This document shows, piece after piece, positions 6,100 through 50,788 of a stretch of DNA of 64,000 nucleotides. The stretch lies in the IMG/VR virus record IMGVR_UViG_3300045988_184146, one strand, 5' to 3'. The translations under genes and the position numbers were made by a program. The number at the start of each line of letters is the position of its first letter. The first letter of the stretch is position 1. The notes under the pieces are model-generated. The model searched no databases, had not been told where the DNA came from, and saw only the letters and a program-made list of their open reading frames with translations. This DNA is from a virus.

Positions 6100-6150
6100 T
6101 ATATTTTTATTAATTATAATTAAAATAAAAATAAAAGAAAGAAGGTGCCT
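6100..6150. promoter_or_regulatory. divergent promoter region with palindromic -10 (TTAATTATAATTAA) apparently serving genes on both strands
   Basis: TATAAT readable on both strands; module hairpin + SD follow in each direction. Confidence 0.4.
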
Positions 6151-6152
6151 TG

Positions 6153-6743: not shown

Positions 6744-6830
6744 CAATTAAAGGACTAGACAGTCCTTTTTCTGTTATAATTAAAGAAATAAATTTATCTG
6801 GAGTTATTCCAGTAGAAAGAAGGAAAGAGT

Positions 6831-10398: not shown

Positions 10399-10551
10399 TA
10401 AAAACTTAAATAAAAATAAAAACTAAGATCGTTGCGAAATACATTCGTGGCGGTCTTTTTTTTGTATATATATAAGAATATAGTTGCAAATATCCTATAA
10501 TACAAAAGAGTGAAGAATGATAAACAATAAAAATTTCGTGAGGGAATAAAT

Positions 10552-14483: not shown

Positions 14484-14599
14484 AAACTAATTTATAAGTT
14501 ATAAAAAGGTATCTAAATTGGATACCTTTTTGAATTTTTAAAACCACTAAGAATATCGAGATATGATAACCTATAATAGATAAAGAAATAAAAAAAGGA

Positions 14600-16438
14600 T
14601 TGGTACTTATTTTGAATAAAAAATTATCATCTATCTTGGCTACTGGTGCATTAATGGTTACTGTATCGCCAGCACTTGGAACTTTTGTTCAGGTTGGCAA
14701 CAACATCGTACACGCAGAAGCCTTTAAAGCTGGTTCTACCGGGACACGAACATTAAAATTTAATGTTAAAGCTGAAGAAAAAGTAAATACAAAAACCGAG
14801 ACTGTAGCTGAACCGGTTGACTTAATTATGATTATTGACGGATCAGGGTCTTTTATTGTTCCTTTCGATAGTGGAGACAATCCACAGAGACAAAAAGTAA
14901 ACGTGGCGTTAAGTGACGCTTTGAAACTTGTAGAATCTCTTCCTGAAGGATCACAAGTTATGATTGCCTCTTACACTTGGAACTCAAAAGATTCTTACGC
15001 AGCGAAAGGTGTTAGTAATTTAATTTCAAAGGCTGACGCCATCAAAACTCTTAATGATATCAAGGACAAATCAAAACTATCTGATTTTGACTGGTACACA
15101 ACTTGGGAGAATTATCTTAAGACTGTAGATTCAAAAATTTACAATAAAAATTCTGAAACTCTTCCATACGAAGAAGCATACGAAAAGAGCACAGCTAAAA
15201 AGAACAAGTACGTATCTGTAGTTCAATTTACAGATGAGTGGATTCAGAACGAAGACATCGACACCTCTTTTGCTGATTGGTCTAAGAAGAATGCGAAGAC
15301 TTTTATGAGTGTCATTTATCCTAAAATTAATGGAAGTACAAAGTCTGAAGAGCAGATGAAAAAAATCGGACACCCTAATATTTACAACGCTCGTGGAAAA
15401 ACTGACGCAGTACGACAAAAAGATATTATTGAAAAATTCAAAAGCTCTGGTTTGAAAACAACTGTCACCAAGGATCGTATTTCTCCTGACGGGGTTGTAT
15501 CTGTTAAAGCAGAAGACGGTGTAGATTTGACGGAAGTTGAGTTGGTATCTCCTACTGGAGCAAAGAAAAAACTTGAAAAAAACTCCGGTGACGCAACATT
15601 TTGGTCTTGGAAAGGCAAACTAGAAGAAGATGGTGAGTATACACTTAATTACAAATTTACGGGTACACCTTCTGAGACTAAAACTATTACAGGAAGTGTG
15701 CAAGTTTCAAATAAAGAAGTGGTAAAAGCAGTTGATACGATTGAGCCTAACAAGTCAAGTTCTGTAGATAAATCAGAAGAGGATATTCCTTTTAAAACGA
15801 TTGAAGAAAAGGATCCTACACTTCCACTGGGAGAACGTAAGGTTAAAGTTAAGGGTGAAATCGGTAAGAAATCCACCACTAAGACTTACAATATGGTGAA
15901 CGGTAAACGTGTGGGTGATCCTAAAGTTGATACCAAGGTTACAAAAGAACCAGTTGACGAAGTTGTTCTCGTTGGTACCAAAGTAGACGAAAAAGTAACT
16001 TATAAGACTATTCACAAGGGTGACGATGGTAAGGTTCTTAAAGAAGAAAACACTGCTGCCGAAAAATCCGAGTTCGAAGGATACAAGTACGTTAAAACAG
16101 AATCTGATAATTCGGATAAGTTGAACGTCGTGACAACTCACCACTACCATAAGCTCATCACTACCTACAAGGGTGTGGATGAAAACGGCAAGGAAGTTGT
16201 TTTAGAAAAAGTTGACGGAACTAAGGACAAGAAAGACTTCAAGGGTTACATCTTCGAAAAGACAGAAAAATTAGACAACGGTGACGTGGTTCATCACTAC
16301 AAGGCTAAAAAAGCTGATGAGAAGAAAAAACCAGTAGAAACTGGAGCTTCAGCTGGATCAATGTTACTTCCAATTGGTGCACTAGGAGCCTCTGTTGCTC
16401 TTCTAGGAGTTGCTAAGTTTAAATCTAAAAGAAAATAA
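14600..16438 (+). CDS. surface protein, tandem paralogue of 12651..14483 (about 80% identical, 3' 250 bp nucleotide-identical)
   Basis: same domain order; alternative TTG start at 14612 giving MNKKLSSILATG signal peptide. Confidence 0.85.
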   Translation: MVLILNKKLSSILATGALMVTVSPALGTFVQVGNNIVHAEAFKAGSTGTRTLKFNVKAEEKVNTKTETVAEPVDLIMIIDGSGSFIVPFDSGDNPQRQKVNVALSDALKLVESLPEGSQVMIASYTWNSKDSYAAKGVSNLISKADAIKTLNDIKDKSKLSDFDWYTTWENYLKTVDSKIYNKNSETLPYEEAYEKSTAKKNKYVSVVQFTDEWIQNEDIDTSFADWSKKNAKTFMSVIYPKINGSTKSEEQMKKIGHPNIYNARGKTDAVRQKDIIEKFKSSGLKTTVTKDRISPDGVVSVKAEDGVDLTEVELVSPTGAKKKLEKNSGDATFWSWKGKLEEDGEYTLNYKFTGTPSETKTITGSVQVSNKEVVKAVDTIEPNKSSSVDKSEEDIPFKTIEEKDPTLPLGERKVKVKGEIGKKSTTKTYNMVNGKRVGDPKVDTKVTKEPVDEVVLVGTKVDEKVTYKTIHKGDDGKVLKEENTAAEKSEFEGYKYVKTESDNSDKLNVVTTHHYHKLITTYKGVDENGKEVVLEKVDGTKDKKDFKGYIFEKTEKLDNGDVVHHYKAKKADEKKKPVETGASAGSMLLPIGALGASVALLGVAKFKSKRK

Positions 16439-25291: not shown

Positions 25292-26587
25292 TTAGATAAA
25301 ATTCTTCTTTTCCAAGAATTTCAAACCATCAATAATGTTGTTAATAGATTTTATTTTTTTACTTAAAATAGATCTATTTTTCTTGTCCTTGATTTGCTGT
25401 TCTATCGATTTATCTTTATCAACTAAATTATTGATACCTTTATAAATTTTTAGAAAAATATAATAATTCAAAAGTTCTTTTGAACAGATTACTTTATCAA
25501 CCTCTCCAAAAATTGGAACATAAAAATCCTCTATTTTTCTATCCGATAAATAAGCGAGCTCTTCTGAAAGACCTTTTATTTCCAGGATACCTTCTTCAAT
25601 AAATTCAGTCCAAAGTCCCACGTCAATATTTTTATTGTATTCGGTTATTTTTTCGTAAATAAAATCATTCTCTTTGTCGTAATGATTTTGTAGGCAAAAG
25701 TCTAGAATAAATTTAAATTGATTTTTCTTAAACAAATCTAGATAGTATTTATCATCTAAAAAATAAACAGATAGATAATCAACAAAAAGAGAAAAATTGA
25801 ATGCGTTGAGTGTTGGAGTTGAACCCTTTCTCTTGTGATAATCAATAAATTTATTTAAAAAATTGCAAACATCATCTCTTGTCTCAAATAAATCCATCAA
25901 GATTCCATCAATAACAAGTTCATCGATTGGATATCCAATTTTACAGAAAAACGAATCCCAATTTTTTTCATTTTGTAACAATTCTAATGTCAATCCTGTT
26001 AAGGAGAAGTTTTTTGTTTCAGCATTATTATAATACCAACTGAGAGCTCCGTAAAATTCCTCTGAGCACTCATCCAAGAAAAATTTTGCAAAATGATCTA
26101 CAAATTTTATCCGGATATCCTCATTGTAGGGATATTTAGAATTTTCTTCGTCTGATAAGGGAATTATATTTAAAATCTTCATACGCTTTTTATTACCCTC
26201 ATCACCTTGGGATGAGTTTTTAAAAATATTCATCAGATTAAATGCGTGCTCATCAACAACAGGATTTAATGATGTTGCACGATTCCGCAACTCAATACGA
26301 AGAGTTTCAATGGATACGTGATCGCTACAAGATAAAATATCATTCAGACTGTTCCCGTAAGAAACTGCAACAAATCTATCAAGTGGGTAATCAAAACTCT
26401 TTGATGTTAGGTAGAAATTATTGTCTACAAAACAAAACAAAATGATTGGTGAGTTTCCGCCAACGCCAGCCTCTACTATCGATTTTGGGAAGAGATTTTC
26501 TGTTGGTAGCAATAATTTTGCACCGTTATTAACAGCGTCAAGAACCATCTTGTCTATTTCCAACCGAAAATTTCCTGTTTCTTTCAT
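25292..26587 (-). CDS. hypothetical protein, family with 32867..34108 and 36106..36447 (shared N-terminal domain)
   Basis: 431 aa; its promoter module directly abuts the left end of IS copy 1. Confidence 0.8.
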   Translation of the reverse strand: MKETGNFRLEIDKMVLDAVNNGAKLLLPTENLFPKSIVEAGVGGNSPIILFCFVDNNFYLTSKSFDYPLDRFVAVSYGNSLNDILSCSDHVSIETLRIELRNRATSLNPVVDEHAFNLMNIFKNSSQGDEGNKKRMKILNIIPLSDEENSKYPYNEDIRIKFVDHFAKFFLDECSEEFYGALSWYYNNAETKNFSLTGLTLELLQNEKNWDSFFCKIGYPIDELVIDGILMDLFETRDDVCNFLNKFIDYHKRKGSTPTLNAFNFSLFVDYLSVYFLDDKYYLDLFKKNQFKFILDFCLQNHYDKENDFIYEKITEYNKNIDVGLWTEFIEEGILEIKGLSEELAYLSDRKIEDFYVPIFGEVDKVICSKELLNYYIFLKIYKGINNLVDKDKSIEQQIKDKKNRSILSKKIKSINNIIDGLKFLEKKNFI

Positions 26588-26658
26588 TTTAATACCTTCT
26601 TTCTACTGAAATAAATTCAGATTTATTATTTCTTAAATTATAAAAGTAAATTCAATTC

Positions 26659-28225
26659 TATTATTTATATTTTTATTTATTTTTGTATATTTTTAATTCA
26701 ATTTTTGAATCGAATTTGTTATTTTAACTATTTTATGATATAATAAGTTAATAAATAAAAATTAGAAAAGGAGGTAGTGGTGAGACAGGTAGAAAGACAT
26801 TTAATTAAACCTGGCAATGGTTTATACACAATTTGTGATGATTTAACATTTAAATCTAAAAATCTTTATAACGCTGGATTGTATCAAATTCGCCAATCCA
26901 TATTCGAACGAAACAAGTATGATAAGGAAAATAAAAAACCAGTACTAAGCTGGTCACAATTAGTTTCTGAATTTAGAAAACAAGATCAGACCGATATGAA
27001 AGCATTACCATCTAAGGTTTCAACTAATATCATAAAAATGTTAGGCGGAAATATCAGCTCGTATTATCAGCTTTTGAAAGGTTATAATGATAAGTCCAAT
27101 AGGAAAATAGCGAATAAGCCAAAGATTCCGGGATATTTACACAAAAAAGATGGTCGTTATGTAGTTGAGTTCACAAACCAAACTTTCGCTAAAAAACGTG
27201 GCGAAAATAACGAACTTATCTTATGCCCAAAGGATCTGAGAATCTCAATTCCAACAAAAGTTGATAACCCAAAATGTGTCAAGATAATTCCTAAAAATGG
27301 TTATTTTTTTATTGATGTTATTTACGAGGTTAAAGAAAAGTCTTTGAGAAAGACTCAAAAATACGCCTCAATTGACCTCGGGGTTGATAATTTAGCTTCG
27401 GTTACATTTTCTGATGGAACTAACCCACTTTTAGTTAAGGGTTTGAAGGTTAAACATATCAATCAAGGATACAACCGTCTAATAGCAAAATCTCAATCAA
27501 AATTACCAAAAAATCAAAAAACAAGTAAGCACATCCACCGTCTTTTTAGAAATCGTGAGATGAAATTGCAATCAGAATTTCATAAAATTACAGGATTTCT
27601 AGCAGAATTTTTCGACGAGATGGCACTTGAAAAGGTTTTTGTTGGTAAGAATGTTGGTTTGAAGTCCGGTATTTCTATAGGGAGAAGAGGAAATCAAAAT
27701 TTTGTCCAAATTCCATATAATAAATTCATCTCTCAACTTAAGTACAAGTGTCAGTTGCGAGGAATAGAAGTTGTAGAACAGGAGGAGTCTTATACATCCA
27801 AGGCTAGTTTTATAGACTGTGATGTTATCCCTGTTTGGAAAAACGATGGCAAAAAGTATAAGTTTTCAGGAGTACGTGAGAAAAGAGGTTTGTATAAAAC
27901 TAAAAGCGGGAAACTTATTAATGCTGATGTTAACGGTTCTTACAATATCCTAGTTAAAGGTTTGAATAATTTAGGTATCAATTTAAAAAGAGATAAGGTG
28001 TCATTCCACACGAGAAGTTTGACTGGTTATAATATCTTGTCTAATAAAAAGTTAATAGAAAAATACACGTAAACCTGTATTTGGTATTTACCAAAGAGGG
28101 CTTATAGAGGTGTTGTAGGACGCCTTTAGCAAAATCAATAAATCAAATTTTATTGTAGTATGTTAAGAATTAAATGATACAGATTATAACAATTTATACA
28201 TTTGTATAAACCATTTAAACCTATA
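26659..28225 (+). mobile_element. IS200/IS605-family, tnpA-less TnpB element, copy 1 (about 1.57 kb)
   Basis: boundaries from where the two copies stop being alignable (left after AATTC; right after AAACCTATA). Confidence 0.7.
26780..28072 (+). CDS. tnpB: TnpB (OrfB) RNA-guided endonuclease-like transposon protein
   Basis: RuvC-I ASIDLGVDN, C-terminal NADVNGSYNI RuvC-III motif, zinc-finger region; GTG start (ATG in copy 2). Confidence 0.9.
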   Translation: MRQVERHLIKPGNGLYTICDDLTFKSKNLYNAGLYQIRQSIFERNKYDKENKKPVLSWSQLVSEFRKQDQTDMKALPSKVSTNIIKMLGGNISSYYQLLKGYNDKSNRKIANKPKIPGYLHKKDGRYVVEFTNQTFAKKRGENNELILCPKDLRISIPTKVDNPKCVKIIPKNGYFFIDVIYEVKEKSLRKTQKYASIDLGVDNLASVTFSDGTNPLLVKGLKVKHINQGYNRLIAKSQSKLPKNQKTSKHIHRLFRNREMKLQSEFHKITGFLAEFFDEMALEKVFVGKNVGLKSGISIGRRGNQNFVQIPYNKFISQLKYKCQLRGIEVVEQEESYTSKASFIDCDVIPVWKNDGKKYKFSGVREKRGLYKTKSGKLINADVNGSYNILVKGLNNLGINLKRDKVSFHTRSLTGYNILSNKKLIEKYT

Positions 28226-28245
28226 CGTTAATGAAATTCTTATCT
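28073..28245 (+). ncRNA. probable right-end/omega-RNA (reRNA) region of the TnpB element
   Basis: about 150 nt conserved between copies downstream of tnpB stop, diverging exactly at the element boundary. Confidence 0.3.
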
Positions 28246-28256
28246 GAGAATTTTAA

Positions 28257-28424
28257 AAAATCTATGATGAATTTATTGGCTTCTTAACAGAAGAAGACGG
28301 TGGTGATTACCAAAAAGCATTTGAGTTTTTCAAATACGGTGTCGAAAATGGAACGTTATCTAACTTTACTAACACAAAATACTTATCTGATTTCATCATC
28401 AAGATGGCGGATCATCTTAAAAAG
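28257..28424 (+). pseudogene. start-less C-terminal gene remnant (56 codons, ..EFIGFLTEEDGGDYQKAFEFFKYG..) abutting IS right end
   Basis: open frame begins at a stop immediately after the IS boundary; higher GC; weak similarity to the remnant next to copy 2. Confidence 0.3.
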
Positions 28425-28470
28425 TAAAAGGAAAGCCTTTTACTTTTTTATTTCAAGGACGCATACTTTT

Positions 28471-28530
28471 GCTATTATAATTTAAGAAATAATAATTCTG
28501 AATTTAATTCAGTTAGAAAGAAGGAAAATA
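28471..28530 (+). promoter_or_regulatory. expression module exemplar: TATAATTTAAGAAA (28476), hairpin CTGAATTTAATTCAG (28498..28512), SD, ATG 28531
   Basis: conserved architecture. Confidence 0.6.
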
Positions 28531-30336
28531 ATGGTAGTAAAAAGTAATTCTATTTCAACAGAACGAGAATCGGAACCGGTTCGTTGGGAAAGAATTGATA
28601 AAATCAAATCCTTAATTAAGGGCAAAAAAATCACAGTATCTGAAGATAATATAGATTTTTTACTTAAATTACTAAAAGGATTCACTTCCCCTTGGTATCC
28701 AAGCGAAAATTCACTAGATGGAGTTTATTTTAGCAAATTCCAAATTTGGTATAGTTTCTTAGAAGATAAGATTATTTTAATCAAAGGTGAAAGGTTGGAT
28801 GATATTCAACATCAGAACGTTTTGGATAAAGATGTCCTATATTTAGGTATTTTCAATCTAAATCAGTCGAGAAAATCTAAAAAACTTGTAGAGTGTTATT
28901 CATTAATCGAATATAATGATTCTTGGGGTATGAAAAAGAAGGGGATTCAATTAACCGATGAGGATTCAGCTAAGAAATTTATCGTTGAATACTTGACAAA
29001 AAGAGTTCGTGAAAAACTTAAATTAGTTTGCGAACGACTGGTTTTAAAAGATGAAACTTTTCTTCATAGTGGTGTTCTAGGTACTGAAGGTTTACTTACA
29101 TCACCTAAAAGAGATATTAAATTTATTTTCAATACACCTTTATCGTTACTAAAAAAGAAGGAACGAGAATGGATGTATAGATATTTATTTTTTGAAACAG
29201 CCGATCCGTTAAAATCAACCTCCAACTATGACGGAGAATTAAAGGTTGTTGAATCTGAGTCTTGGGATTATCTGTCAACTTTTCGTGAAGAATTTAACCA
29301 ATATTTATCGGATATTAAAACTGATATCGTTAATATGTTTGTTCAAGCAAATAGTTACACAGGCTTAAAAACTATGTCTACACGAAGTGAACTTCTAGGA
29401 CTTCTCTGTAATTGGTTTAGAAAATATTTCTTTACTGAAGAAGCTGGTGTTTTCTACCTAAAGGATTCTAGTGTATGTTGCGAAAATCTTTATTTCGAAG
29501 ATAGCAAGTACTATTCTAATCAAATTGCTTTTATTGAATTATTAGGAGAGATAGCTAGATCTTCATTTAATAGTAATGCAGAAAATGTTGTTTTAGGATT
29601 AGCGGAAATTACAGGTGAACTTGCAGGTGGACGATTTATGAACTCGGCTATGAGTACTTTAAATTTGTCAACATCATTCTTTTTCTCTACAGGAACGAAA
29701 GGAAAATTTGTTCAGCTTTTATTCAGTAAGCTACTTGAATCCTCAACAAAAGATTTTAACAAAAAAGAACTTGAAAGTTTGGTTTATGATTTTCAAAATG
29801 GTATTACCATTGGTAAGGTTGGGCGAGGCTCTGTATTTCTTGGCGACGCATACAATAAAAAGTTGATTTTGGAAGAGCTGGACTCATTCATCAAGAATAA
29901 AGAACTCGATAAATTAAGAGAATTTAACCTCGACATTGATTTGGTGTATAACCTTACAAGTAAAAATAATTCTATTACGTTTGGTTACTCAACTGTGGAT
30001 CTTGCGATTTTAAAATCCATATCCAATAATATTCCGGTTAAGATAGGTGGTTCTCTTTTTATAAGGCTTGAGTTTGAAACAATCCTTAAATTGTTAATTG
30101 ACGAAGTTGATTTTAATTATCAATCTACTATGGATCACATCAAAATAATCAAAGAAATTAAAGATAATAATCCTGGAAAAGTAAAAGTGATTCTTGAAAA
30201 TTCAGAACCAGAATTGTTTTCAAAACAAATTGATTATTTAAGGGTTGGAATTGAGAATGGAATTTATGACGAATTTGAAAAGCCTAAAATTTTACTTGAA
30301 TTTATCAACCTAATTTTAGAATTGATGAAAAACTGA
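28531..30336 (+). CDS. hypothetical protein (601 aa), paralogue of 31098..32837
   Basis: shared internal motifs and C-terminal G(I/L)YDEFE(K/S). Confidence 0.8.
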   Translation: MVVKSNSISTERESEPVRWERIDKIKSLIKGKKITVSEDNIDFLLKLLKGFTSPWYPSENSLDGVYFSKFQIWYSFLEDKIILIKGERLDDIQHQNVLDKDVLYLGIFNLNQSRKSKKLVECYSLIEYNDSWGMKKKGIQLTDEDSAKKFIVEYLTKRVREKLKLVCERLVLKDETFLHSGVLGTEGLLTSPKRDIKFIFNTPLSLLKKKEREWMYRYLFFETADPLKSTSNYDGELKVVESESWDYLSTFREEFNQYLSDIKTDIVNMFVQANSYTGLKTMSTRSELLGLLCNWFRKYFFTEEAGVFYLKDSSVCCENLYFEDSKYYSNQIAFIELLGEIARSSFNSNAENVVLGLAEITGELAGGRFMNSAMSTLNLSTSFFFSTGTKGKFVQLLFSKLLESSTKDFNKKELESLVYDFQNGITIGKVGRGSVFLGDAYNKKLILEELDSFIKNKELDKLREFNLDIDLVYNLTSKNNSITFGYSTVDLAILKSISNNIPVKIGGSLFIRLEFETILKLLIDEVDFNYQSTMDHIKIIKEIKDNNPGKVKVILENSEPELFSKQIDYLRVGIENGIYDEFEKPKILLEFINLILELMKN

Positions 30337-30411
30337 GGGGGTATCATTCCTCCTCTTTTATAATTTAAGAAATAAAAAAATCTGAATTTATTTCAGTAGA
30401 AAGAGGGAAAA

Positions 30412-30957
30412 ATGGTTTTAAACACAAAAACAGAAGAATCTTCTCAGTTTGAACAGATGAAGCAAATAAAAGATATCATCCAAAAAGGAGAATATCCACT
30501 TTCAGAACAATTTATGGATGTTGTTAGGTTATCTATTAAGAAGCTAAACAAATATCCTTATGTTCGTGTTGAAGCTGGATCTGTAGGTGAATTGAAGTTG
30601 CCTGTTTTTATTATTTATTACTTCTGTGAAACAAACACATTTGAAATTTTTTCAAAATATGAAATCGATTATCTTCCGAGTTTTACCGAAGATTTGTGTG
30701 TGAATCAGCCTATTTTATTGGGTGAATTACATTTAAACGCAAGTCGTGATACTAGACAGTTTAGGGCAATTTTTGGAAAAAGCCTGCTAAGTGGATCAGA
30801 AAATCGAAAATTAGAAGTCAACGATTATTATCTTGATAGATTTATAAATTACAAATTCAAAAGTTTTATTAAGAAAAAATTGTTGTCAATTTATCAAGAT
30901 TTTTTGAATAAGGGTGATTTTCCGAGTATTATTACATCGGAAAATCTTGACTACTGA
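30412..30957 (+). CDS. hypothetical protein (181 aa)
   Basis: module upstream, terminator AGAAGAGUU..AACUCUUCU downstream. Confidence 0.75.
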   Translation: MVLNTKTEESSQFEQMKQIKDIIQKGEYPLSEQFMDVVRLSIKKLNKYPYVRVEAGSVGELKLPVFIIYYFCETNTFEIFSKYEIDYLPSFTEDLCVNQPILLGELHLNASRDTRQFRAIFGKSLLSGSENRKLEVNDYYLDRFINYKFKSFIKKKLLSIYQDFLNKGDFPSIITSENLDY

Positions 30958-31097
30958 TGAGTTTCCAGATATTATTACTCGATAATAAAAAAGAAGAGTT
31001 CAAACTCTTCTTTTTTTATTAAAGATTTTATTCTCTAATCTGTTATAATTTAAGAGAATAAAAATAAAACTATTTAAATAGAAAGAAGGAAAACAAA

Positions 31098-32837
31098 ATG
31101 ATTAAAACATCAGGTTCCAGCAAGATGGAGACTATTAAAAAGATTAAGAATGCTTTTGAGCGTGTATCCAAATCTGACTTCAAATTCAGCAAAGAAAATG
31201 TCAAGGATCTATGCTTGGCAATCTATAGCTTCGAAGATGATGGTACATACCTTAACAAAGAGGAGGGATCTTTAAAAACTTTAATTTTTAAAAAGATCGA
31301 CGTTTGGTACTTATTCGACACAGAAGAGTTTCTCTTCAAGATGAGTGGCATTCCACGCCAAAAACTAGAGCAACAAGCTATCAAGATCGGAACTATCAAC
31401 TTTAACAAAAACAAGGGTTCATCATTGTTGAAGGACGCTTTCGGTTTATCTTTGTATAAAAATAAATTTGGATCAATTGATCCAAAAATTGAAGACAAAG
31501 ACATCCTGAAAAAGTTTGTTGAGAGCGCAGCTAAGAAATTTGTTGTAAAAAATCTGAAAGAACTTTATCGACAATTGTTAGAATACGAATCAACCTACTC
31601 TAATAACTTCTTAGATAAACCAACTGAACACTGGGTTCGTTCAGGTAATTTTCCAGTCCCGCTTTGTCTTTTAAGTGAAACTGAACGAGATGAAGCCCTC
31701 AAAACTCTAATCTTCACTGAATCTACTTCAGAAAAGTGGACACACGCCTTAAAATTATCAGTAGATGGTTTTGAAATAATGAATCAGAATCTTCTCTCAT
31801 ACACAAAACCTTTTGAAGAATATGTCAAATCTTTTGTGAAGAAAGAACAGGATAACTTTGTTGACAATTTAATTCCTGAAATTGATTCAACAGATAAATA
31901 CAACAACTCGAAGTTGAGATTGAACTATATTTCTAAATATTTGTATAGTTTGTATACAAAAGAAGATCTTTACGATAGCTTCGATGATGAAGAAAAGTTG
32001 AATCAAAAATTGGAATCTCTTGGTATGCAATTTGAAGAGATCTTAGAAGATACCGACAATTTCATTCTTTATTTATTCAAGGAACTGTCAAAGCGTAGCC
32101 CAGGTTACGGTATGAAGTTTTTATTATACATCCTAGATGATGGTTATTATCATCTATCAAGCCATATATCTAAACATTCTAGAGTTGGTTATGGTTACGG
32201 TTATAATAATAAAGATTCGCAAATAAAATCTGCGTTTAACAAGATTTCTAATCACGTGCTAGATTTTATTGAAGCTAAAATTGACAGTCGTGATGATCTC
32301 CTATCAGAATATGTTGCGTTTGAAGAAAGTTACGCTTCAAAAAAGAAAGAGCGACACTACTACGGATCTAGAGCTTTTGATCCCAGTGATTTATTTGTTA
32401 TCAAAATTAAATCAAGATACAAGGACGAGTCTTTGAAGGTTGTGAGTAGCTTCAAGGTTGAAAAGAAATTGAAGTACGAATCAACAATTCTTATCAAGAA
32501 ATTTGATGATTATGAAAAACGCATACTTCAGATGATTAATTTTGGTAAGGAATTGTCCTTTTCAGAACCTGTAATTTTTGGATTCAAATTTGAAGATTTG
32601 ATAAATCTAATTACTGTAAAAGTCGACGAAACTGATGATCGTGTTAAATTATTCGAACATCTTCTGGATCAATATAAGGATAATCTGACTGTTCTAATTC
32701 CAGATGGTGAAACATCTGAACAGTTTAAGAAGAAGATTGGCTTATTCAGCGAAAGTATCGATTCTGGTCTGTACGACGAGTTTGAATCAATTTCAGTTTT
32801 GAAGACAATCCTAAAAATCTATCTTGCAAAAATCTAA
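31098..32837 (+). CDS. hypothetical protein (579 aa), paralogue of 28531..30336
   Basis: module with hairpin CTATTTAAATAG; bidirectional terminator at 32840..32866. Confidence 0.8.
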   Translation: MIKTSGSSKMETIKKIKNAFERVSKSDFKFSKENVKDLCLAIYSFEDDGTYLNKEEGSLKTLIFKKIDVWYLFDTEEFLFKMSGIPRQKLEQQAIKIGTINFNKNKGSSLLKDAFGLSLYKNKFGSIDPKIEDKDILKKFVESAAKKFVVKNLKELYRQLLEYESTYSNNFLDKPTEHWVRSGNFPVPLCLLSETERDEALKTLIFTESTSEKWTHALKLSVDGFEIMNQNLLSYTKPFEEYVKSFVKKEQDNFVDNLIPEIDSTDKYNNSKLRLNYISKYLYSLYTKEDLYDSFDDEEKLNQKLESLGMQFEEILEDTDNFILYLFKELSKRSPGYGMKFLLYILDDGYYHLSSHISKHSRVGYGYGYNNKDSQIKSAFNKISNHVLDFIEAKIDSRDDLLSEYVAFEESYASKKKERHYYGSRAFDPSDLFVIKIKSRYKDESLKVVSSFKVEKKLKYESTILIKKFDDYEKRILQMINFGKELSFSEPVIFGFKFEDLINLITVKVDETDDRVKLFEHLLDQYKDNLTVLIPDGETSEQFKKKIGLFSESIDSGLYDEFESISVLKTILKIYLAKI

Positions 32838-32866
32838 AACAAAAAAGAGGCTTTAAAACCTCTTTT

Positions 32867-34108
32867 TTAATTTTCGTGAATTTTACTAAAATTACCCGAA
32901 GTTTCAGCAAGATTCTCGTTGATCTTTTTCAAAGATTTCACTAAAAACTCATTTCCCTGTTCGGACAACTGTTTGTTAAATAGAACCAAAATTTTTAATG
33001 CAATATTAAACTCAATATATTCTGTATTAAATCTAGAGAGATCTGATTCAAACGTTGATTTTCCAAGATCTCCTCTATCTAACCTTTTTTGTAATGAACT
33101 TTGATAATTTTTTAGATACTCAGAGTGTCTCTCCATTTTATTAATTAAAATTTCAAGATCAACTATTTCAAGTCTTTTTTCTTCTACAAGTTTTTCAAAA
33201 TCCATTTTAAAAATTTCATCCTTAAAATTTTCAAAATAATCCTTGTTAAATTTTGGAGTAACTTTTAGTTTTAAATTTGGATCTTCGAATAACTTGATAA
33301 AATCATCGCCTAATTCATTAGCGATTGAAATTAAATCTGCAACAGATATTTCGTTGTATTCTAATAATAAGTTTTTGTAAAAGTTTAACAGGCTAAATTC
33401 AGGAATTTTCTTTGAAATTGAAAATAGAAGATTCTTTCTACCAAGTGGGTTTGTTAAATTTTTAAATAAAAATAATAACTTATCTTCACTATTTATAAAG
33501 TTTAAGAAAAAATCCTTTAATCGTGTGGTAAACCAACCTTTTTCAAGTGAAATTATTGCATACTTAGTTTCACCTTTGAAAAACACATCAAACACAAAAT
33601 CCTTGAGTTCAACTTCAAAGTCACTGTTTGTGTTTGAAAACTTGTATCGTCTCAAAGCTGTCCTAAAGTTCCTTTCCTCCAAATCTAAATTAAAGTTCTT
33701 CGAATCATAATATTTGTGATATTTGAAAATTAATTGATAAAAGTCATCACAAGAAAAAATTCCAAACTTTCCCTCTGAGAACCTCGTTAATAAAAGATTC
33801 CTAATTAGTTCTGCGGTTAATACGTCCGGAATCTCATACCCGTATTTTTCTTCATCAAAAAGTACAACAAACTTATCACTTGGAAGAGCTCCTCCATTTG
33901 ATAAAAGATAAAATTTATTGTTATCTAAGCAGAATACTACTTTTTGAATATTCTTTGCTTTGAATTTGATAAATTCATCATCAAACACTTCACGATCCGG
34001 AAGATTTAAAAACTGTTCTCCAGAATCGACGTAGGAATCAATAGACTCCAATACTTTCTGTTCTAATCTCAGCAGAAGACTGTCATTATTGGTTTTGATC
34101 ATAAACAA
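32867..34108 (-). CDS. hypothetical protein (413 aa), same family as 25292..26587
   Basis: N-terminal domain alignable with 25292 and 36106 products. Confidence 0.8.
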   Translation of the reverse strand: MFMIKTNNDSLLLRLEQKVLESIDSYVDSGEQFLNLPDREVFDDEFIKFKAKNIQKVVFCLDNNKFYLLSNGGALPSDKFVVLFDEEKYGYEIPDVLTAELIRNLLLTRFSEGKFGIFSCDDFYQLIFKYHKYYDSKNFNLDLEERNFRTALRRYKFSNTNSDFEVELKDFVFDVFFKGETKYAIISLEKGWFTTRLKDFFLNFINSEDKLLFLFKNLTNPLGRKNLLFSISKKIPEFSLLNFYKNLLLEYNEISVADLISIANELGDDFIKLFEDPNLKLKVTPKFNKDYFENFKDEIFKMDFEKLVEEKRLEIVDLEILINKMERHSEYLKNYQSSLQKRLDRGDLGKSTFESDLSRFNTEYIEFNIALKILVLFNKQLSEQGNEFLVKSLKKINENLAETSGNFSKIHEN

Positions 34109-34193
34109 TCCTTCTTTCTTTTATTTTTTTTAAAAATTATACCAAAAATAAAAATTGGAAGTTCTACTAAACCTCCAATTTTCTTATAAATAA

Positions 34194-34508
34194 TTATTCG
34201 ATATTGTTATCTGACAATAATTTTTTGAAATTTTCTTTATCAAAATTAAATAGACTACTCCACTCTTTTTCTAGGTATTCGAAAATCCAATCCCCAAAAG
34301 TTGATTTCCCTAAACTCTGAAGAAATTCCAGGAGCTTATTTTCATCTGTTACAAAATCAGATAAAACTTTTGAAAAGTCTGAGTTTGAGTTTTTATTCAA
34401 AGTCTGAGAGTATGGTTTGGATTTCAGGTGTTTCACAACAAGGCTATCAGAACCTTTGAACAGTAGATTATAAACGAAATTTTGCAAGCTAAGTTTGTAA
34501 TCACTATC
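34194..34508 (-). pseudogene. C-terminal gene remnant (open from the IS copy-2 right-end boundary; internal TTG/97-aa ORF 34194..34487)
   Basis: frame opens at a stop right after the IS boundary; contains LGKSTF segment resembling the C-terminal region of 32867..34108 product. Confidence 0.4.
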
Positions 34509-34531
34509 TTACTTTGAAAGTTCGTAAAATC

Positions 34532-36096
34532 TATAGGTTTAAATGGTTCATACAAATGTATCATTTATTATCATCTGTATCATTTAATTCTTAACATTCC
34601 ACAACAATATTTAAATTATTGTTTTTGCTAAAGGCGCCCCACAACACCTCTATAAGCCCTCTTTGGTAAATACCAAATACAGGTTTACGTGTATTTTTTT
34701 ATTAGCTTTTTATTAGACAAGATATTACAACAGTTCAAACTTCTCGTATGGAATGACACCTTATCTCTTTTTAAACTGATACCTAAATTATTCAGGCCTT
34801 TAACCAGGATATTGTAGGAACCGTTAACATCAGCATTAATTAGTTTTCCGCTTTTAGTTTTATACAAACCTCTTTTTACACGCACCCCTGAAAACTGATA
34901 CTTTTTGCCATCATTTTTCCAAACCGGAATTACATCAGAGTCTATAAAGCTAGCTTTGGATGTGTAAGATTCCTCCTGTTCTACAACTTCTATTCCTAGC
35001 AACTGACACTTGTACTTAAGCTGAGAAATGAATTTGTTATAGGGAATTTGAACAAAATTTTGATTTCCTTTTTTACCAATGGAGATACCGGACTTCAAAC
35101 CTACGTTTTTACCAACAAAAACCTTTTCAAGTGACATCTCGTCGAAAAATTCTGCTAAAAATCCTGTAATTTTATGAAATTCTGATTGCAATTTCATCTC
35201 ACGATTTCTAAAAAGACGGTGGATGTGCTTACTTGTTTTTTGATTTTTTGGTAATTTTGATTGTGATTTTGCTATTAAACGATTGTATCCTTGATTGATG
35301 TATTTAACTTTCAAGCCCTTTACTAAAAGTGGGTTTGTTCCATCAGAAAATGTAACAGCAGCTAAATTATCGACTCCGAGGTCAATTGAGGCGTATTTTT
35401 GAGTCCTTTTTAAAGATTTTTCTTTAACATCGTAAATAACATCAATAAAAAAATAACCATTTTGGGGAATTATCTTAACACATTTGGGGTTGTCAACTTT
35501 TGTTGGAATTGAGATCCTCAAATCTCTTGGACATAAGATAAGTTCATTATTTTCACCACGCTTTTTAGCAAAAGTTTGGTTTGTAAACTCAACCACATAC
35601 CTACCTTCTGTCTTGTGTAGATATCCTGGGATCCTCGGCTTATTTGTTATTTTCTTATTTGACTTATCATTATAACCTTTTAAAAGCTGATAATATGAAC
35701 TGATATTACCTCCCAACATTTTTATGATATTAGTTGAAACCTTAGATGGTAATGCTTTCATATCGGTCTGATCTTGTTTTCTAAATTCAGAAACTAATTG
35801 TGACCAGCGTAGTACTGGTTTTTTATTTTCCTTATCAGATTTATTTCGCTCGAATATAGATTGACGAATCTGATACAATCCAGCGTTATAAAGATTTTTA
35901 GATTTAAACGTTAAATCATCACAAATTGAATACAAATTACTACTAGGTTTAATTAAATGTCTTTCTACCTGTCTCATTACTACCCCCTTTTCTAAAATTT
36001 TTTTATTAACTTATTATATCATAAAATATTTAAAATAACAAATTCGACTAAAAATTGAATTAAAAATGTACAAAAATAAATAAAAATATAAATAAC
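34532..36096 (-). mobile_element. IS200/IS605-family tnpA-less TnpB element, copy 2 (inverted relative to copy 1)
   Basis: about 95% identical to copy 1 over its whole length including 5' and 3' non-coding parts. Confidence 0.7.
34685..35977 (-). CDS. tnpB: TnpB (OrfB) protein, copy 2
   Basis: 430 aa, >95% identical to copy 1; ATG start. Confidence 0.9.
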   Translation of the reverse strand: MRQVERHLIKPSSNLYSICDDLTFKSKNLYNAGLYQIRQSIFERNKSDKENKKPVLRWSQLVSEFRKQDQTDMKALPSKVSTNIIKMLGGNISSYYQLLKGYNDKSNKKITNKPRIPGYLHKTEGRYVVEFTNQTFAKKRGENNELILCPRDLRISIPTKVDNPKCVKIIPQNGYFFIDVIYDVKEKSLKRTQKYASIDLGVDNLAAVTFSDGTNPLLVKGLKVKYINQGYNRLIAKSQSKLPKNQKTSKHIHRLFRNREMKLQSEFHKITGFLAEFFDEMSLEKVFVGKNVGLKSGISIGKKGNQNFVQIPYNKFISQLKYKCQLLGIEVVEQEESYTSKASFIDSDVIPVWKNDGKKYQFSGVRVKRGLYKTKSGKLINADVNGSYNILVKGLNNLGISLKRDKVSFHTRSLNCCNILSNKKLIKKYT

Positions 36097-36105
36097 GAAT
36101 TAACC

Positions 36106-36447
36106 TTAAATAATACGATTAACAATAATCTTCGCAAACTCCTCGGCGTTTACTACGATATCAGTCATCTCTTTTTGAAAATCAAGAATAGAATCGTAAA
36201 GAGTTACAAACTGATCGATTGGCAAAAGTTCTCCCGAGTTCACACAGTAGAACTTGTCATTAACAATGCAGAATACAATTTTCGAACTTCTGTGACCCAC
36301 TCCGATTCTCATTTTATCAGGCGGGAATACACCCTTTTCCGGAAAATTAAGGAATTGATCTCCAGATTTTGAATATTGATCTAAAACCTTAAGAACGTGC
36401 TTTTCTAATTCTAAAAGAAAATTATTATTTTTGTTTGTTGCAATCAA
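36106..36447 (-). CDS. short member (N-terminal domain only, 113 aa) of the 25292/32867 family; stop codon 4 nt from IS copy-2 left end
   Basis: aligns to residues about 5-115 of the 413/431-aa paralogues; possibly truncated by the insertion. Confidence 0.6.
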   Translation of the reverse strand: MIATNKNNNFLLELEKHVLKVLDQYSKSGDQFLNFPEKGVFPPDKMRIGVGHRSSKIVFCIVNDKFYCVNSGELLPIDQFVTLYDSILDFQKEMTDIVVNAEEFAKIIVNRII

Positions 36448-36592
36448 ATAAATGGCCCTCTTTCTAAAACTGTAAAAGTTTGTTTTTTTCTAAATTTATA
36501 AAATCGGATGAGAATCCCCCCTCTTTTTGTTGCAAAAAATTCAATTTTTTGATATAATATAAGAAACAAAAATATAGAAAGAAGGAATTAAA

Positions 36593-37819: not shown

Positions 37820-37911
37820 AAAAGAAGAGTGAAATATTCACTCTTCTTTTATAATTTAAGAAAAAAATATTTTACTGAATTATTTTCAGTTAGAAAAGAA
37901 GGAAATTTATA

Positions 37912-42163: not shown

Positions 42164-43207
42164 TTAAAACGGAAGATTACTGTCCATTTCTTCTAATATT
42201 TCAGAAACAATCCGGATAACCCTCTTGTTTTGTTCAGGATCACATTTAAATTGAAACATATCTATTAATTTTTTCATCGAATCATTCTGTAACAATCCGG
42301 ATTTTAATTGTTCATCACTTATAAGCCAAATTGGTTGGCTACCAGATAGAAAATCTTTAAATTCAAAGCAATTATCAGAAAGTAAGATTTTTTTGTAAAA
42401 TTCTTCAAAATCTTCCTTTGCTTTTTTAGCATAATATTTTAATAAATTTTCATAACCTTCACCACGAGGATCGATTAACATCTGGATTAAATTCTTATTC
42501 ATCCAGCTTGTTGAAAAGTCCTTAGTTGATAGTTTTATATTGTGATGACCAACTTTAGAAGAGTATCTTGTATGATAAAGTGATAGTTTGCTATCTGAAT
42601 CAATATAAAATTCTATTTTATTAGAACCTAAATTTGAATCCAAATCCAATTGATTGAAAATTGATAGTTTTTTTGTGAGATATTGAGAAATTCTTTTGAT
42701 AGTTTCTTCTCTATCAAGTTCAACGCTCGGTTTTTTGGTATTGATGAGATTGTTAAAAACATACGCTGTTTCAACTTCAAGTTTCTTAATATTTTTTGTT
42801 AAAAATTTATACATTTTTTTATTAATATCATCAGGAACCCCGGTAATATTCAATTTTGTGATTTCCAATAGATATCTATGATCTCTACTAAATTTACCAC
42901 CAGGTTTGAAATTAGTTTTTGAATCAAAAAATCTATAATCAATATCGAAAACTAAATTTTCGAGTATCTCATCGTGTTGAATAATGAGGTCTGGATTATT
43001 TGCAAACAAACGAATATCTCTATCATCACTATTAGTTTTGAATTTTGACTTGATTTCGCATAAAACCTTTTTAATTATCAGGTTGAATTTTACATCATCC
43101 CTTAAAACTTCAACAAATTCAGATGTATCAGTTTTTGCTAGATTTTTTGCAGTAGTCATTAAATTAACAAATTGACCGTTATCTTCTTGTTTTGTTTTTA
43201 TTACCAT
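42164..43207 (-). CDS. hypothetical protein, tandem family (conserved ANNP(D/H)LI..E and C-terminal DPEQxKRFAE..ELL motifs)
   Basis: 347 aa; module upstream. Confidence 0.8.
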   Translation of the reverse strand: MVIKTKQEDNGQFVNLMTTAKNLAKTDTSEFVEVLRDDVKFNLIIKKVLCEIKSKFKTNSDDRDIRLFANNPDLIIQHDEILENLVFDIDYRFFDSKTNFKPGGKFSRDHRYLLEITKLNITGVPDDINKKMYKFLTKNIKKLEVETAYVFNNLINTKKPSVELDREETIKRISQYLTKKLSIFNQLDLDSNLGSNKIEFYIDSDSKLSLYHTRYSSKVGHHNIKLSTKDFSTSWMNKNLIQMLIDPRGEGYENLLKYYAKKAKEDFEEFYKKILLSDNCFEFKDFLSGSQPIWLISDEQLKSGLLQNDSMKKLIDMFQFKCDPEQNKRVIRIVSEILEEMDSNLPF

Positions 43208-43272
43208 CTTTTCCTTCTTTCTAAACTTTTTATTTTTTTAAAATTATAAGAAAAGAATAGAGAGGTAACTCT

Positions 43273-44292
43273 CTATTCCTGTAATAATCTGGAGACAGCC
43301 TCCGCAAATCTTTTTCTCTGCTCAGGATCTTTTTCGTGCTGGATTAGAGATTTTAGCTGTTTAAATGCAACACGATTGCGAATCTCATCCTCAATCATTC
43401 CTTCGCTTAGAATAGCAAGCCCGTACTGCCCGGTTTTAACATTGTCAAGAGTAAATTTGTTACCTTCAAGAAGAAGTTTCGATAGATACATTTTAGCTTC
43501 TAGTTTTATTATCTTTGCATAATAAATAACAACATCATCATAAGAATCTCCGTATCTATCGTCCAACATTTTAATGTAAGATGTTTTTAAAAGATCTGGA
43601 CTCATTGAATACAAATAGACATCAACATCACAAAACATTGTGTAATCTTGTGTGTTAGATTCGAAAACATTACCTAAATTACCATCACTATCAACAAATA
43701 AAGAAATACGATTAGAGAGTCTTTCGATACCAAGAAATATATTGAATGGTGATAGATCTTCCTTCATCATTTTTGATACCTTAGAAATAACGTCATTGTG
43801 GGTTACTTCTTCTGGAGTCTCACTATTATATGGATCAATGTTGAGATCTATTTTCTTTATAAGAGAAACCTTTCTCTTTGCAATTTGAATCCGTTTTTCT
43901 AGCGATAAACTCATCTTCTTATTGATATTAGATGGAATATTACTTACCAAAAGATTTTTAATTAAAATTGTCTCGTAAGTATCATTACTCCAGGGAGATG
44001 ATATGATAGAATAAGGCCCGTCTTCAAAATCACAAGAAATTTCAAGTTCACTTACGATCTTGTCATATTCTAATATAAGATGAGGATTGTTAGCTAATAA
44101 ACGAACATCCCTATCTTTTGAATTTGATTTTAAAGATGAGCGCAAACAAGTCAAAATATAATCAATAGCATTGTTGAACGGATCGTTATCAAGTAAGTCT
44201 TCGTAAATTTCTTCAACACTCTTATTAGCAAGAACCTTCATCCTATTAACTAAATTGATAAAGTTTGTTTCATCTTTGGTAGTCTTTACCAT
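43273..44292 (-). CDS. hypothetical protein, same tandem family
   Basis: 339 aa. Confidence 0.8.
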   Translation of the reverse strand: MVKTTKDETNFINLVNRMKVLANKSVEEIYEDLLDNDPFNNAIDYILTCLRSSLKSNSKDRDVRLLANNPHLILEYDKIVSELEISCDFEDGPYSIISSPWSNDTYETILIKNLLVSNIPSNINKKMSLSLEKRIQIAKRKVSLIKKIDLNIDPYNSETPEEVTHNDVISKVSKMMKEDLSPFNIFLGIERLSNRISLFVDSDGNLGNVFESNTQDYTMFCDVDVYLYSMSPDLLKTSYIKMLDDRYGDSYDDVVIYYAKIIKLEAKMYLSKLLLEGNKFTLDNVKTGQYGLAILSEGMIEDEIRNRVAFKQLKSLIQHEKDPEQRKRFAEAVSRLLQE

Positions 44293-44398
44293 TTTTTCAC
44301 CTTCTTTCTAAAATTATTACAGTTTTCAAATATTTCTTAAATTATAACAGAACTGACCGACATCAATGTCGGTCAGTTAAAAACTTAAATTAATATAG

Positions 44399-45358
44399 CT
44401 ATTCTAACAATAATTCTGTAATAATATCAGCGAAGCGTTTTTTATTTTCTTTCGTTTCGTTATATAAAAGTTCTTTAATAGCACAGAAGCTATTATTGTA
44501 ACGCAATTCGCTTTTTATTTTTTTATCAGTGAAATAATCTAATGAGGCTGTTCTAGCCTCCAAATCTTTAAAGGAAAAGATATCCTCTTCAATTAAAAAT
44601 TTTGCACTTAATTCTAGAGCCCTTTTTCTAATTTTATCACAGTAATCTTTTAATAAAAACTTTTCATCTTCATCGTCAATAAATGATTTTAAAAATAACT
44701 TATTATCCCGAGATAAAAAATTGGTTTTATCGTTAATGCCAATCTTCAAGTTTAACAAATCAATAAGATGATTTTTGAAGCTAAGAGATAATTTTTTATT
44801 TTTATCAAGATAAACAGTGGTTGTTTTGAGACGGTGGTGTGACGATTTTTCGGAATGATAGATATGGTTAGCAAAGGATAATTTTTCCTTCAAATACTTA
44901 GATAAAGAAGTTGCAACTTTATCTTCAGATTTGCATTTTGAGTCAACACGAAATGAAACTGTAAAGTATTCCCAACTAGATCCATTAGAAATTTTCTTAA
45001 CTTTAGTATTAATTTTATCCTTAAATTCTTTCTTGATTTTTTCTGGAAATATTACAGAAACATACTTACCAACCTCAAAAGTATTGCTTGAGTTTTCGAC
45101 GATATTAAAATCAAATTTTAAATCCTTAACCGCCTTCTCATACTCAAAGATTAATTCCGGATTTTCCGCAAACATCTTTGCAAAATCATCAGTGTAATTC
45201 AATCGTGCGTACAAATCAGCAAATTCATCATAGATTTCTTTTACAATTTTAGCCTCACCTATTTTTGATAAAATATCCTCATCACTCATTTTTGCAATAT
45301 TCTTAAGCGACAAAGATAGTTCTAAAACTTCATTATTATTATCTTTCGAACTTTTCAT
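44399..45358 (-). CDS. hypothetical protein, same tandem family
   Basis: 319 aa; 5' end and first codons (MKSSK) duplicated in the next gene. Confidence 0.8.
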   Translation of the reverse strand: MKSSKDNNNEVLELSLSLKNIAKMSDEDILSKIGEAKIVKEIYDEFADLYARLNYTDDFAKMFAENPELIFEYEKAVKDLKFDFNIVENSSNTFEVGKYVSVIFPEKIKKEFKDKINTKVKKISNGSSWEYFTVSFRVDSKCKSEDKVATSLSKYLKEKLSFANHIYHSEKSSHHRLKTTTVYLDKNKKLSLSFKNHLIDLLNLKIGINDKTNFLSRDNKLFLKSFIDDEDEKFLLKDYCDKIRKRALELSAKFLIEEDIFSFKDLEARTASLDYFTDKKIKSELRYNNSFCAIKELLYNETKENKKRFADIITELLLE

Positions 45359-45693: not shown

Positions 45694-45782
45694 TCGAACA
45701 CCTTCTTTCTTTATATTTTTTCTTTAATTATAAAAGAGAATTGATTACAAAAACCAACTCTCTTAATCTCCACGTCTACTTC

Positions 45783-49665: not shown

Positions 49666-50664
49666 TTACCCTTTTAACAACTCTGCAATAATTTCAGCAA
49701 AGCGTTCAATCTGTTTCGGATCTTTTTCATTCTTAATAAAATCTTTGAGACCTAATACGTTATGATTAAATTTAAGACGCTCTTTTATTTTCTCATCAGA
49801 AATCAATTCAAGTTTAGCGTTACCCTTTCGAACATCATCAATTGTAAAGGGATCGTTCAAAATTAAAACTTCCGAGGCTTTTTTAACTGCATATTTGATT
49901 ATCTTTTCTGCATAAAACTCCAATAAAAGTTTTTTATTAAGATCAAGATTATTACACAAATAATTAAAGAACAGCCCGTTTGATTTTGAAGAGTAAGTTC
50001 CTAAAGTATTTAGTCCAATTTGTAAATTTCCGAATTTGATACATTCCTTTTGAAACTTATAACTCTTATCTGTATAAAGCTGGCCATCCTTGTCAATCAA
50101 AAGCGGAATAAGTTTTGTGGTTGTTTCAATCCACTTATCACGGAAAATAATATTAAAAGGATATAATCCTCTTTTAATTTTCTTAAGTAAAAAATTTTCA
50201 ATTTCACTTTTTTTTGCTCGTTGTGAAGGGCTTTTTTTTATATCGTAAACATTAATTTCTAAGAGATCACCTTTTACTTTCGAAAATCTTTCGGTAATTA
50301 TTGTTTTGATATTGGGATTTGTATCTTGGGGAATGTTGATTTTTAAATTTTTAATTTCGTGAACGTAAAAATTATTTCTTGTCACAAACCGCTCATCAAA
50401 TGAAATCGTAATTTCACCAATTGCTTTTTCTAGTTCAGGAACTAAATCTAAATTTTCAACAAGCAATTTTCCTTCTTGAGTATCAACGTTTTTGAGATTT
50501 AAAAAATAAGAACAATTTTTAATTAAGGTATTTAACGCCCCCATAAAAGATTCGTCGTTTTCCAAAATTGTTGCCACATCACTAACAGATTTTTTTGAAA
50601 AAGTTTGCAATTGTTTAAAAACATCAATTTTAGGATCCTTAATTTCATTAGACTTTTTAACCAT
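49666..50664 (-). CDS. hypothetical protein, fifth member of the tandem family (separated from the array by the TnpB element and two genes)
   Basis: C-terminal DPKQIERFAEIIAELL motif. Confidence 0.8.
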   Translation of the reverse strand: MVKKSNEIKDPKIDVFKQLQTFSKKSVSDVATILENDESFMGALNTLIKNCSYFLNLKNVDTQEGKLLVENLDLVPELEKAIGEITISFDERFVTRNNFYVHEIKNLKINIPQDTNPNIKTIITERFSKVKGDLLEINVYDIKKSPSQRAKKSEIENFLLKKIKRGLYPFNIIFRDKWIETTTKLIPLLIDKDGQLYTDKSYKFQKECIKFGNLQIGLNTLGTYSSKSNGLFFNYLCNNLDLNKKLLLEFYAEKIIKYAVKKASEVLILNDPFTIDDVRKGNAKLELISDEKIKERLKFNHNVLGLKDFIKNEKDPKQIERFAEIIAELLKG

Positions 50665-50788
50665 TATTTTAAATTCCTTTCTTTCAACTGAATTTAATTC
50701 AGTATTTAATTCTTTCTTATATTATATCAGAAATATAGCTCTATATCAAATCAAAAAGGGGATATCGAAACTGATACCCCTAGTTTTA

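Follow-up and report, generated by a model that had tools for sequence, protein, structure and literature searches.

Between positions 25,292 and 36,447 of a 64,000-nucleotide (nt) stretch of the IMG/VR virus record IMGVR_UViG_3300045988_184146 (the whole stretch is hereafter called the window), there are two copies of a ~1.58-kb element that carries only tnpB. The copies lie in opposite orientations and are 91% identical over 1572 bp in a self-alignment. Both are old, and very probably each of them wrecked a different, unrelated gene of unknown function, namely a gene for a protein of 582 amino acids (aa) at copy 1 and a gene for a 260-aa protein at copy 2. This is ordinary gene erosion by mobile DNA. 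An earlier reading made from the letters alone (the sequence-only reading) had offered two explanations for the start-less reading frames beside the elements, that is, repeated insertion into a motif inside paralogous genes, or erosion and truncation of genes by the elements. The allele comparisons below favor the second as the supported reading. The first, which if true would have meant a sequence-directed attack on one paralog family, was not supported.

The two interrupted genes

Element-free alleles were obtained by exact-protein look-ups in metagenome contigs, which yielded the variants L003 and L004. L003 was collinear with the window and had no element at either site. At the copy-2 site, one intact 260-aa gene was present in L003 and in L004, and at the copy-1 site L003 carried the 582-aa gene in intact form, oriented divergently from its 431-aa neighbor. 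From these alleles, the intact form of each gene and the point of insertion can be read. Intact forms also dominated public data, in which proteins of 581–590 aa formed 40 clusters and proteins of 259–260 aa formed 13 clusters, together with hundreds of members. The comparison directly demonstrates that these TnpB elements erode the hypervariable ORFan gene clusters.

In the 260-aa gene, 110 bp were lost next to the left end of copy 2. The N-terminal part survives in a 113-aa open reading frame (ORF), which the sequence-only reading had placed 4 nt short of the left end; the left end starts at 36115, so the final codons and the stop lie inside the element, and the last two codons ("II") and the stop (ATT ATT TAA) are left-end sequence. 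On the other side, the right-end flank continues the 260-aa gene in frame from AGA TTT TAC, and a new in-frame TAA was found at 34509–34511, seven codons past the junction. Copy 2 would have inserted in the 260-aa gene 3' of (G/T)TAT and in the same orientation as the gene; the N-terminal part would thereby have come to end on the left-end stop, and the C-terminal part would have persisted as a start-less stub. The 413-aa gene, which had been described as adjoining the copy-2 right end, is the tandem neighbor of the split 260-aa gene and does not abut the element.

At copy 1, the promoter and the first ~340 codons of the 582-aa gene, 1078 bp, were gone. The element lacked the first 20–24 nt of its left end, and the junction fell in a TTAT microhomology at 26661–26664. 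The stub on the right-end side consisted of two pieces (remnants 1a and 1b) joined after a second, ~525-bp deletion that changes the frame. Copy 1 probably inserted near codon 340 of the 582-aa gene, also 3' of (G/T)TAT and pointing the same way as the gene; a loss of DNA on its left-end side would then have removed the 20–24 nt of element, the ~340 codons, and the promoter, and the second deletion would have shortened the stub. For both genes, we infer that insertion came first and the left-end-side deletion later. The right-end flanks of both copies thus do open into start-less frames, as had been noticed, and both frames are gene remnants: decaying pseudogene fragments from two unrelated genes.

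An inversion between the two inverted copies was considered for the mismatched flanks and rejected, because 28283–34535 is collinear with the element-free L003. An assembly artifact was also rejected, since the same arrangement occurred in the independent samples ERZ772925 and ERR589458/ERZ964613. The window's own arrangement was likewise present in independent samples L001, L002, L007, and L008.

Other arrangements were seen at both sites. At the site of window 26665–28370, L004 (7131–8732) had a different TnpB element between the 431-aa and 601-aa genes, in the opposite orientation and with a 407-aa TnpB that was only 40% identical; ~14 C-terminal codons of the 582-aa gene were left. Element turnover seems to have a hot spot in this gap. 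In L018 and L022 (883–2709), a gene for a surface protein (608 aa; signal peptide, C-terminal membrane anchor), together with another copy of the element, lay between the intact 260-aa gene and a 185-aa gene, where the window has only 146 bp.

Insertion sites and one-sided losses

A protein-guided scan of metagenome contigs yielded 41 additional loci, which were used to set the element boundaries. About 35 of the 41 carried the same element, with TnpB at most 94% identical to the query and DNA ~78–92% identical to copy 1. Several loci shared one contig of 337–393 kb, with up to four copies per contig. When the ends were aligned, the full left end read TAT(T/C)ATTTAAGGTTAATTCGTTATTTATATTTTTATTTATTTTTGTATA, and all right ends stopped at ...AACCATTTAAACCTAT, beyond which the flanks diverged. 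The base directly 5' of the left end was G in 13 of 14 distinct sites.

Directly 5' of the right-end flank, element-free alleles had GTAT at five of the six empty sites and TTAT at the other (Table 1). The pair L021 (filled) and L039 (empty) represented a clean simple insertion. As TAT also closes the right end, a 3-bp TAT duplication is indistinguishable from a GTAT target joined to a right end with CTAT as its last bases. The density of GTAT was 4 per kb in the window and at background level in the family genes. Insertion 3' of a fixed tetranucleotide fits the habit of IS200/IS605 elements, and, by analogy with characterized TnpB systems, GTAT would also serve as the target-adjacent motif (TAM).

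Of the six sites for which an empty allele is known, five lacked DNA between the left and right flanks (110, 1078, ~1310, ~980, and ~1660 bp). The missing DNA was always the 5' part of the interrupted gene, often reaching the promoter or start codon, and the element was always oriented as that gene. The upstream junction usually fell at the start codon or in the conserved promoter/5'-untranslated region (5'-UTR) module of the gene. In some cases, the loss extended 20–26 nt into the left end, which was truncated or unrecognizable at ~9 of 23 distinct sites (L011, L012, L016/L017/L046/L048, L024, L026, L028, L030, L031, and copy 1). The right end was exact wherever sequence reached it, with the exception of the internally decayed copy L037. 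Copies with a truncated left end kept an intact tnpB of ~430 codons (418 in L031) under purifying selection. Two stretches of the window, 6826–8141 (ORF 6831–8348, +) and 49753–50736 (ORF 49666–50664, -), are element-free here, but other genomes carry the element there. L016/L017/L046/L048 have the element in place of the first ~437 codons of a 505-aa ORF and keep a 68-codon C-terminal stub; in L014, it replaces the promoter and most of a 332-aa ORF and leaves a 29-codon C-terminal stub. The right-end flanks at both of these sites follow GTAT.

The promoter/5'-UTR module consists of TATAATTTAAGAAATAATAA, a short inverted repeat, and AGAAAGAAGG, and precedes many unrelated ORFan genes; the window contained 8 matches versus 0.2 expected. 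Several of the left-end deletion junctions lay inside or beside it.

As in classical pseudogenization driven by insertion sequences (IS), a gene is split by the element, the stubs gain nonsense or frameshift mutations and further deletions, and intact alleles persist in the population. However, the losses here are one-sided, falling on the left-end side at five of six sites, and the right-end junction is always exact. To our knowledge, there is no established mechanism by which IS200/IS605-type elements delete adjacent DNA. The idea that the one-sided losses are a mechanistic signature of this TnpB element, and not random decay, is tentative, and we regard it as doubtful. Possible causes are scars from imprecise repair of TnpB-induced breaks (homing), deletions that TnpA makes or that the left end promotes, selection keeping only the TnpB and guide-RNA module in copies that are no longer mobile, and recombination between two nearby copies. 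The losses raise a testable question, that of the effect of TnpB-only elements on their own flanks.

The missing DNA might instead stem from double insertion, in which two same-orientation copies entered each gene and homologous recombination deleted the intervening DNA together with one copy. This would account for flanks that lie 110–1660 bp apart in element-free alleles, both ends are complete in L014 and in window copy 2, and recombination between copies does occur. We nevertheless consider it unlikely, as each of five independent sites would have had to receive two insertions close together, the empty alleles in several cases lack GTAT at the upstream junction (copy 2 has CCGTGT and L041 has AAAAAT), and it leaves unexplained why the left end is truncated in copy 1, in L016-type copies, and in others. 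The recombinant locus itself, L015, combines the left flank of the L009 site with the right flank of the L016/L017 site, pointing to homologous recombination between copies and hence to genome rearrangement.

Table 1. Features of the window and empty insertion sites. Empty-site sequences are those immediately 5' of the right-end flank.
Feature	Position	Strand	Remarks
TnpB element copy 1	26661..28224 (left edge approximate)	+	left end truncated; right end intact, ends ...AAACCTAT
tnpB of copy 1	26777..28072	+	431 aa, intact
Right-end non-coding region, copy 1	28073..28224	+	conserved RNA-like structure, candidate omega-RNA scaffold
Retained divergent intergenic DNA	26588..26664	.	431-aa gene promoter module, -10 box region 26623-26642; 100% identical to L003 up to 26664
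Remnant 1a	28225..28284	+	codons ~341-360 of 582-aa gene, native frame (TLMKFLSENFKKSMMNLLAS, then stop)
Remnant 1b	28284..28427	+	last 47 codons and stop of 582-aa gene, other frame than 1a
TnpB element copy 2	34533..36115	-	full length; left end TATTATTTAAGGTTAATTCG..., right end ...AAACCTAT
tnpB of copy 2	34685..35977	-	430 aa, intact
N-terminal ~110 codons of 260-aa gene	36116..36447	-	annotated ORF 36106-36447 runs into element left end
Remnant 2	34194..34532	-	codons ~149-260 of 260-aa gene, native frame, new nonsense codon
Family-A paralog, 431 aa, intact	25292..26587	-	same protein on 11 metagenome contigs
Family-A paralog, 413 aa, intact	32867..34108	-	called as 411 aa in public data
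Family-B paralog, 601 aa, intact	28531..30336	+	C-terminus matched by remnant 1
Family-B paralog, 579 aa, intact	31098..32837	+	from all-against-all BLASTP of window ORFs
Empty site of copy 2			TTTTTGTAT, element-free alleles
Empty site of copy 1			CTTTAT, in L003
Empty site of L041			CGGTAT, seen in L003
Empty site of L016/L017/L046/L048	8141		CTGTAT, in the window
Empty site of L014	49753		ACGTAT, in the window
Empty site of L021			CTATGTAT, in L039
Promoter/5'-UTR module match	26623-26642	-
Promoter/5'-UTR module match	28476-28495	+
Promoter/5'-UTR module match	30359-30378	+
Promoter/5'-UTR module match	36553-36572	+
Promoter/5'-UTR module match	37850-37869	+
Promoter/5'-UTR module match	44327-44346	-
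Promoter/5'-UTR module match	45713-45732	-
Promoter/5'-UTR module match	50707-50726	-
Further tandem ORFan paralog groups	42164-45358 and 49666-50664; 8497-12546; 12651-16438; 3798-6159

Stub homology and the local gene families

The gene hit by copy 2 belongs to one local family (family A) and the gene hit by copy 1 to another (family B). The three members of family A (25292–26587, 32867–34108, and 36106–36447) share an N-terminal domain of ~85 aa, with BLASTP E values of 3e-6, 1e-8, and 1e-18, which bears out the three-member family of the sequence-only reading. The likeness of the 431-aa protein to the other two is limited to this domain, and the 260-aa protein matched the 413-aa protein with E = 2e-29 (over residues 1–222, reaching residues 3–218 of the 413-aa protein). 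Searched against 1.84 billion representative proteins, a profile of the N-terminal domain reached only three paralog clusters (259, 409, and 431 aa) and fragments; family A is a lineage-restricted ORFan in one tandem cluster. In family B, a 181-aa ORF shared the N-terminal region of the 579-aa protein in BLASTP. Families A, B, and C had no match in Pfam, PADLOC, or PHROGs, and the AlphaFold2 model of the 260-aa protein, with a mean predicted local distance difference test (pLDDT) score of 47, was too poor for a fold search.

The two remnants had been reported to resemble each other and the C-terminal region of the 413-aa protein, and these resemblances did not survive alignment statistics. Compared with each other, the remnants gave a Smith-Waterman score of 32 versus a shuffle mean of 27.3 (z = 0.97, p = 0.17), and a profile-profile comparison of their parent families with hhalign gave a probability of 0.6% and E = 0.095, with a best match that did not run C-terminus to C-terminus. 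Remnant 1 did not resemble the 413-aa protein (p = 0.62) and matched the C-terminus of the 601-aa protein instead (z = 5.5); remnant 2 aligned to the middle of the 413-aa protein (residues ~160–252, z = 3.9). Part of the proposed common motif, EF(I/L)xxL, was an artifact, as 28257–28283 ("KIYDEFIGF") is read out of frame from codons ~341–360 of the 582-aa gene; this peptide never belonged to any protein. A remote link between families A and B was also sought with hhalign, and none was detected.

According to the sequence-only reading, every member of the 25292/32867/36106 family lay directly against an element end. Only the 260-aa gene was hit, and the other two are near through the tight local cluster, the 431-aa gene being the divergent neighbor of the destroyed family-B gene. 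All three family-A genes occur within 12 kb, so any element landing here comes to lie near one. Elsewhere, ~18 distinct sites of this element had no gene of family A, B, or C within 3 kb; the other loci with such a gene that close (L041; L018, L019, and L022) all belong to the present region.

It is very unlikely that the element repeatedly enters a motif of AATTC plus context in one paralog family and that the stubs are homologous C-termini. Both copies do adjoin family members, AATTC apparently stands in both left-end flanks, and both right-end flanks hold start-less ORFs. However, the stubs are not homologous, remnant 1 belonging to family B, and the families of the two hit genes have no detectable homology; in addition, the ~18 other sites lack a family gene within 3 kb. 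AATTC occupies positions 15–19 of the left end common to copy 2 and at least 13 other sites, in copy 1 it is a deletion-junction microhomology, and in the family genes it occurred at background density. Thus, the family and the start-less remnants behind the earlier reading exist, whereas its stub homology, its element boundaries, and AATTC as the target were not upheld. The least probable account is that the start-less frames are functional, yielding small proteins or new C-terminal modules through expression that reads out of the right end: although both directly follow the right end in the orientation of tnpB, they have no start codon or ribosome-binding site, remnant 2 soon meets its in-frame TAA, remnant 1 is a frame-shifted fusion of two pieces, and the same stub is reduced to ~25 codons in L041 and ~14 in L004.

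The TnpB element and its carrier

Both TnpB proteins matched the Pfam families OrfB_IS605 (PF01385, 60 bits) and Cas12f1-like TNB (PF07282, 48 bits) above the cut-offs, and they scored 134 and 129 bits with the NCBIfam model guided_TnpB (NF040570), versus a cut-off of 100. Between the two copies, tnpB showed a nonsynonymous divergence (dN) of 0.033 and a synonymous divergence (dS) of 0.415, with an omega of 0.08. This dS indicates that both copies are old and not the product of a recent duplication. Across comparisons, omega ranged from 0.06 to 0.12, revealing strong purifying selection, and such selection on the coding sequence suggests a functional protein. Among 185,579 reference genomes, no TnpB relative exceeded 40% identity. 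A PDB search with a single TnpB sequence gave no match; a profile of the clade was needed and reached the ISDra2 TnpB structures 8bf8/8exa (E = 2.5e-6).

The RuvC residues D200 (IDLG) and D384 (NADVNG) were invariant across 10 diverse relatives. The column aligned with the canonical RuvC-II Glu (VEDL) was variable in this clade (E, D, W, T, N, or S) and was followed by a conserved IG(K/T/H)N, mostly IGKN (TnpB residues ~283–292 and 334–344). An invariant EE directly precedes YTSK, and the usual zinc-finger cysteines are absent. Together, the variable Glu column, the EE, and the lost cysteines suggest a rearranged TnpB catalytic site.

The ~150 nt from the tnpB stop to the right end were analyzed with RNAalifold on 25 copies, which gave 42 pairs, 8 of them with compensatory double changes. 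From this model, the region is a candidate omega-RNA scaffold. An Rfam scan of the region returned chance-level matches only and no omega-RNA family. The folding energy of the right end was -6.6 kcal/mol (z = -1.56).

Like IS1341-type TnpB-only elements (ISDra2 and IS608 derivatives), the element has a single tnpB that passes the guided_TnpB model, a structured and conserved ~150-nt non-coding stretch whose end coincides with the right end, apparent insertion 3' of one tetranucleotide, GTAT, a lack of long terminal inverted repeats, and a strand-specific orientation. It differs from them in that no Y1 TnpA is found in the element or the scanned window ORFs, the left-end hairpin is not clear, its clade lacks the zinc-finger cysteines and does not conserve the RuvC-II Glu column, and the nearest reference relative is only 40% identical. 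The absence of TnpA fits a non-autonomous IS1341-type derivative. The safest label is "TnpB-only, IS1341-like", as strict membership in IS200/IS605 would call for a TnpA and a convincing left-end hairpin, neither of which was found here. We infer that the element is mobilized by a Y1 TnpA supplied in trans, and, by analogy, TnpB would act under RNA guidance with GTAT as its TAM.

The carrier is a ~370-kb element of the human mouth with 32% guanine plus cytosine (GC), most likely an Inocle-type giant plasmid. Inocles, an unusual kind of host element discovered only recently, are extrachromosomal elements of giant size in oral Streptococcus (Kiguchi et al. 2025, PMC12340149). The two have in common an origin in human oral metagenomes, including PRJEB6997, which was also used in that paper; a size of 337–393 kb, at which the longest same-gene contigs cluster (~350–390 kb for Inocles); a GC content of ~32% overall (28–39% in 2-kb windows here); several element copies per contig; a RecD-like helicase and G5 surface proteins; almost no gene of known function; and absence from reference collections. 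The paper counted insertion sequences with ISEScan, at ~nine per Inocle-alpha, and the passages searched are silent on family, ends, target, and gene effects (PMC12340149). The present work gives a first anatomy of the element found scattered through Inocle-type elements: a TnpB-only unit of ~1.58 kb with a GTAT target, a conserved candidate right-end RNA, and ancient copies under purifying selection. No near-identical DNA or protein was found in phage, plasmid, and GTDB collections, which rules out a known phage or plasmid as the source.

Several points weigh against the account given here. The order of events given above is a reconstruction: for copies that keep a full left end, insertion at the upstream junction and then a loss on the right-end side stopping at a GTAT would produce an identical map. 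In L003, the empty copy-1 site has TTAT in place of GTAT, although a synonymous variant of a Leu codon could yield GTAT there. The element holds only tnpB, and no Y1 TnpA domain was detected among the 30 window ORFs scanned. The left end had no convincing hairpin (-1.5 kcal/mol, z = +0.87). As to the carrier, the Inocle identity draws on size, GC content, habitat, and element load. InoC, the single-copy marker of ~454 aa with an N-terminal PF13814 domain that defines Inocles in the published description (PMC12340149), was not found, PF13814 having no match in 30 window ORFs, including those of 450 and 475 aa; its absence from a 64-kb window is weakly informative, because it is a single-copy gene in a ~370-kb genome. 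The Inocle_004 polymerase chain reaction primer was also absent from the window, which is uninformative.

The DNA around the elements had a GC content of 28–32% and was full of ORFs without a Pfam, PADLOC, or PHROG match. All-against-all BLASTP of the window ORFs revealed many small paralog groups, and local gene families are unusually numerous on the host element. The further groups (Table 1) included four proteins of 319–347 aa and two G5/SSSPR-type surface proteins that were 82% identical.

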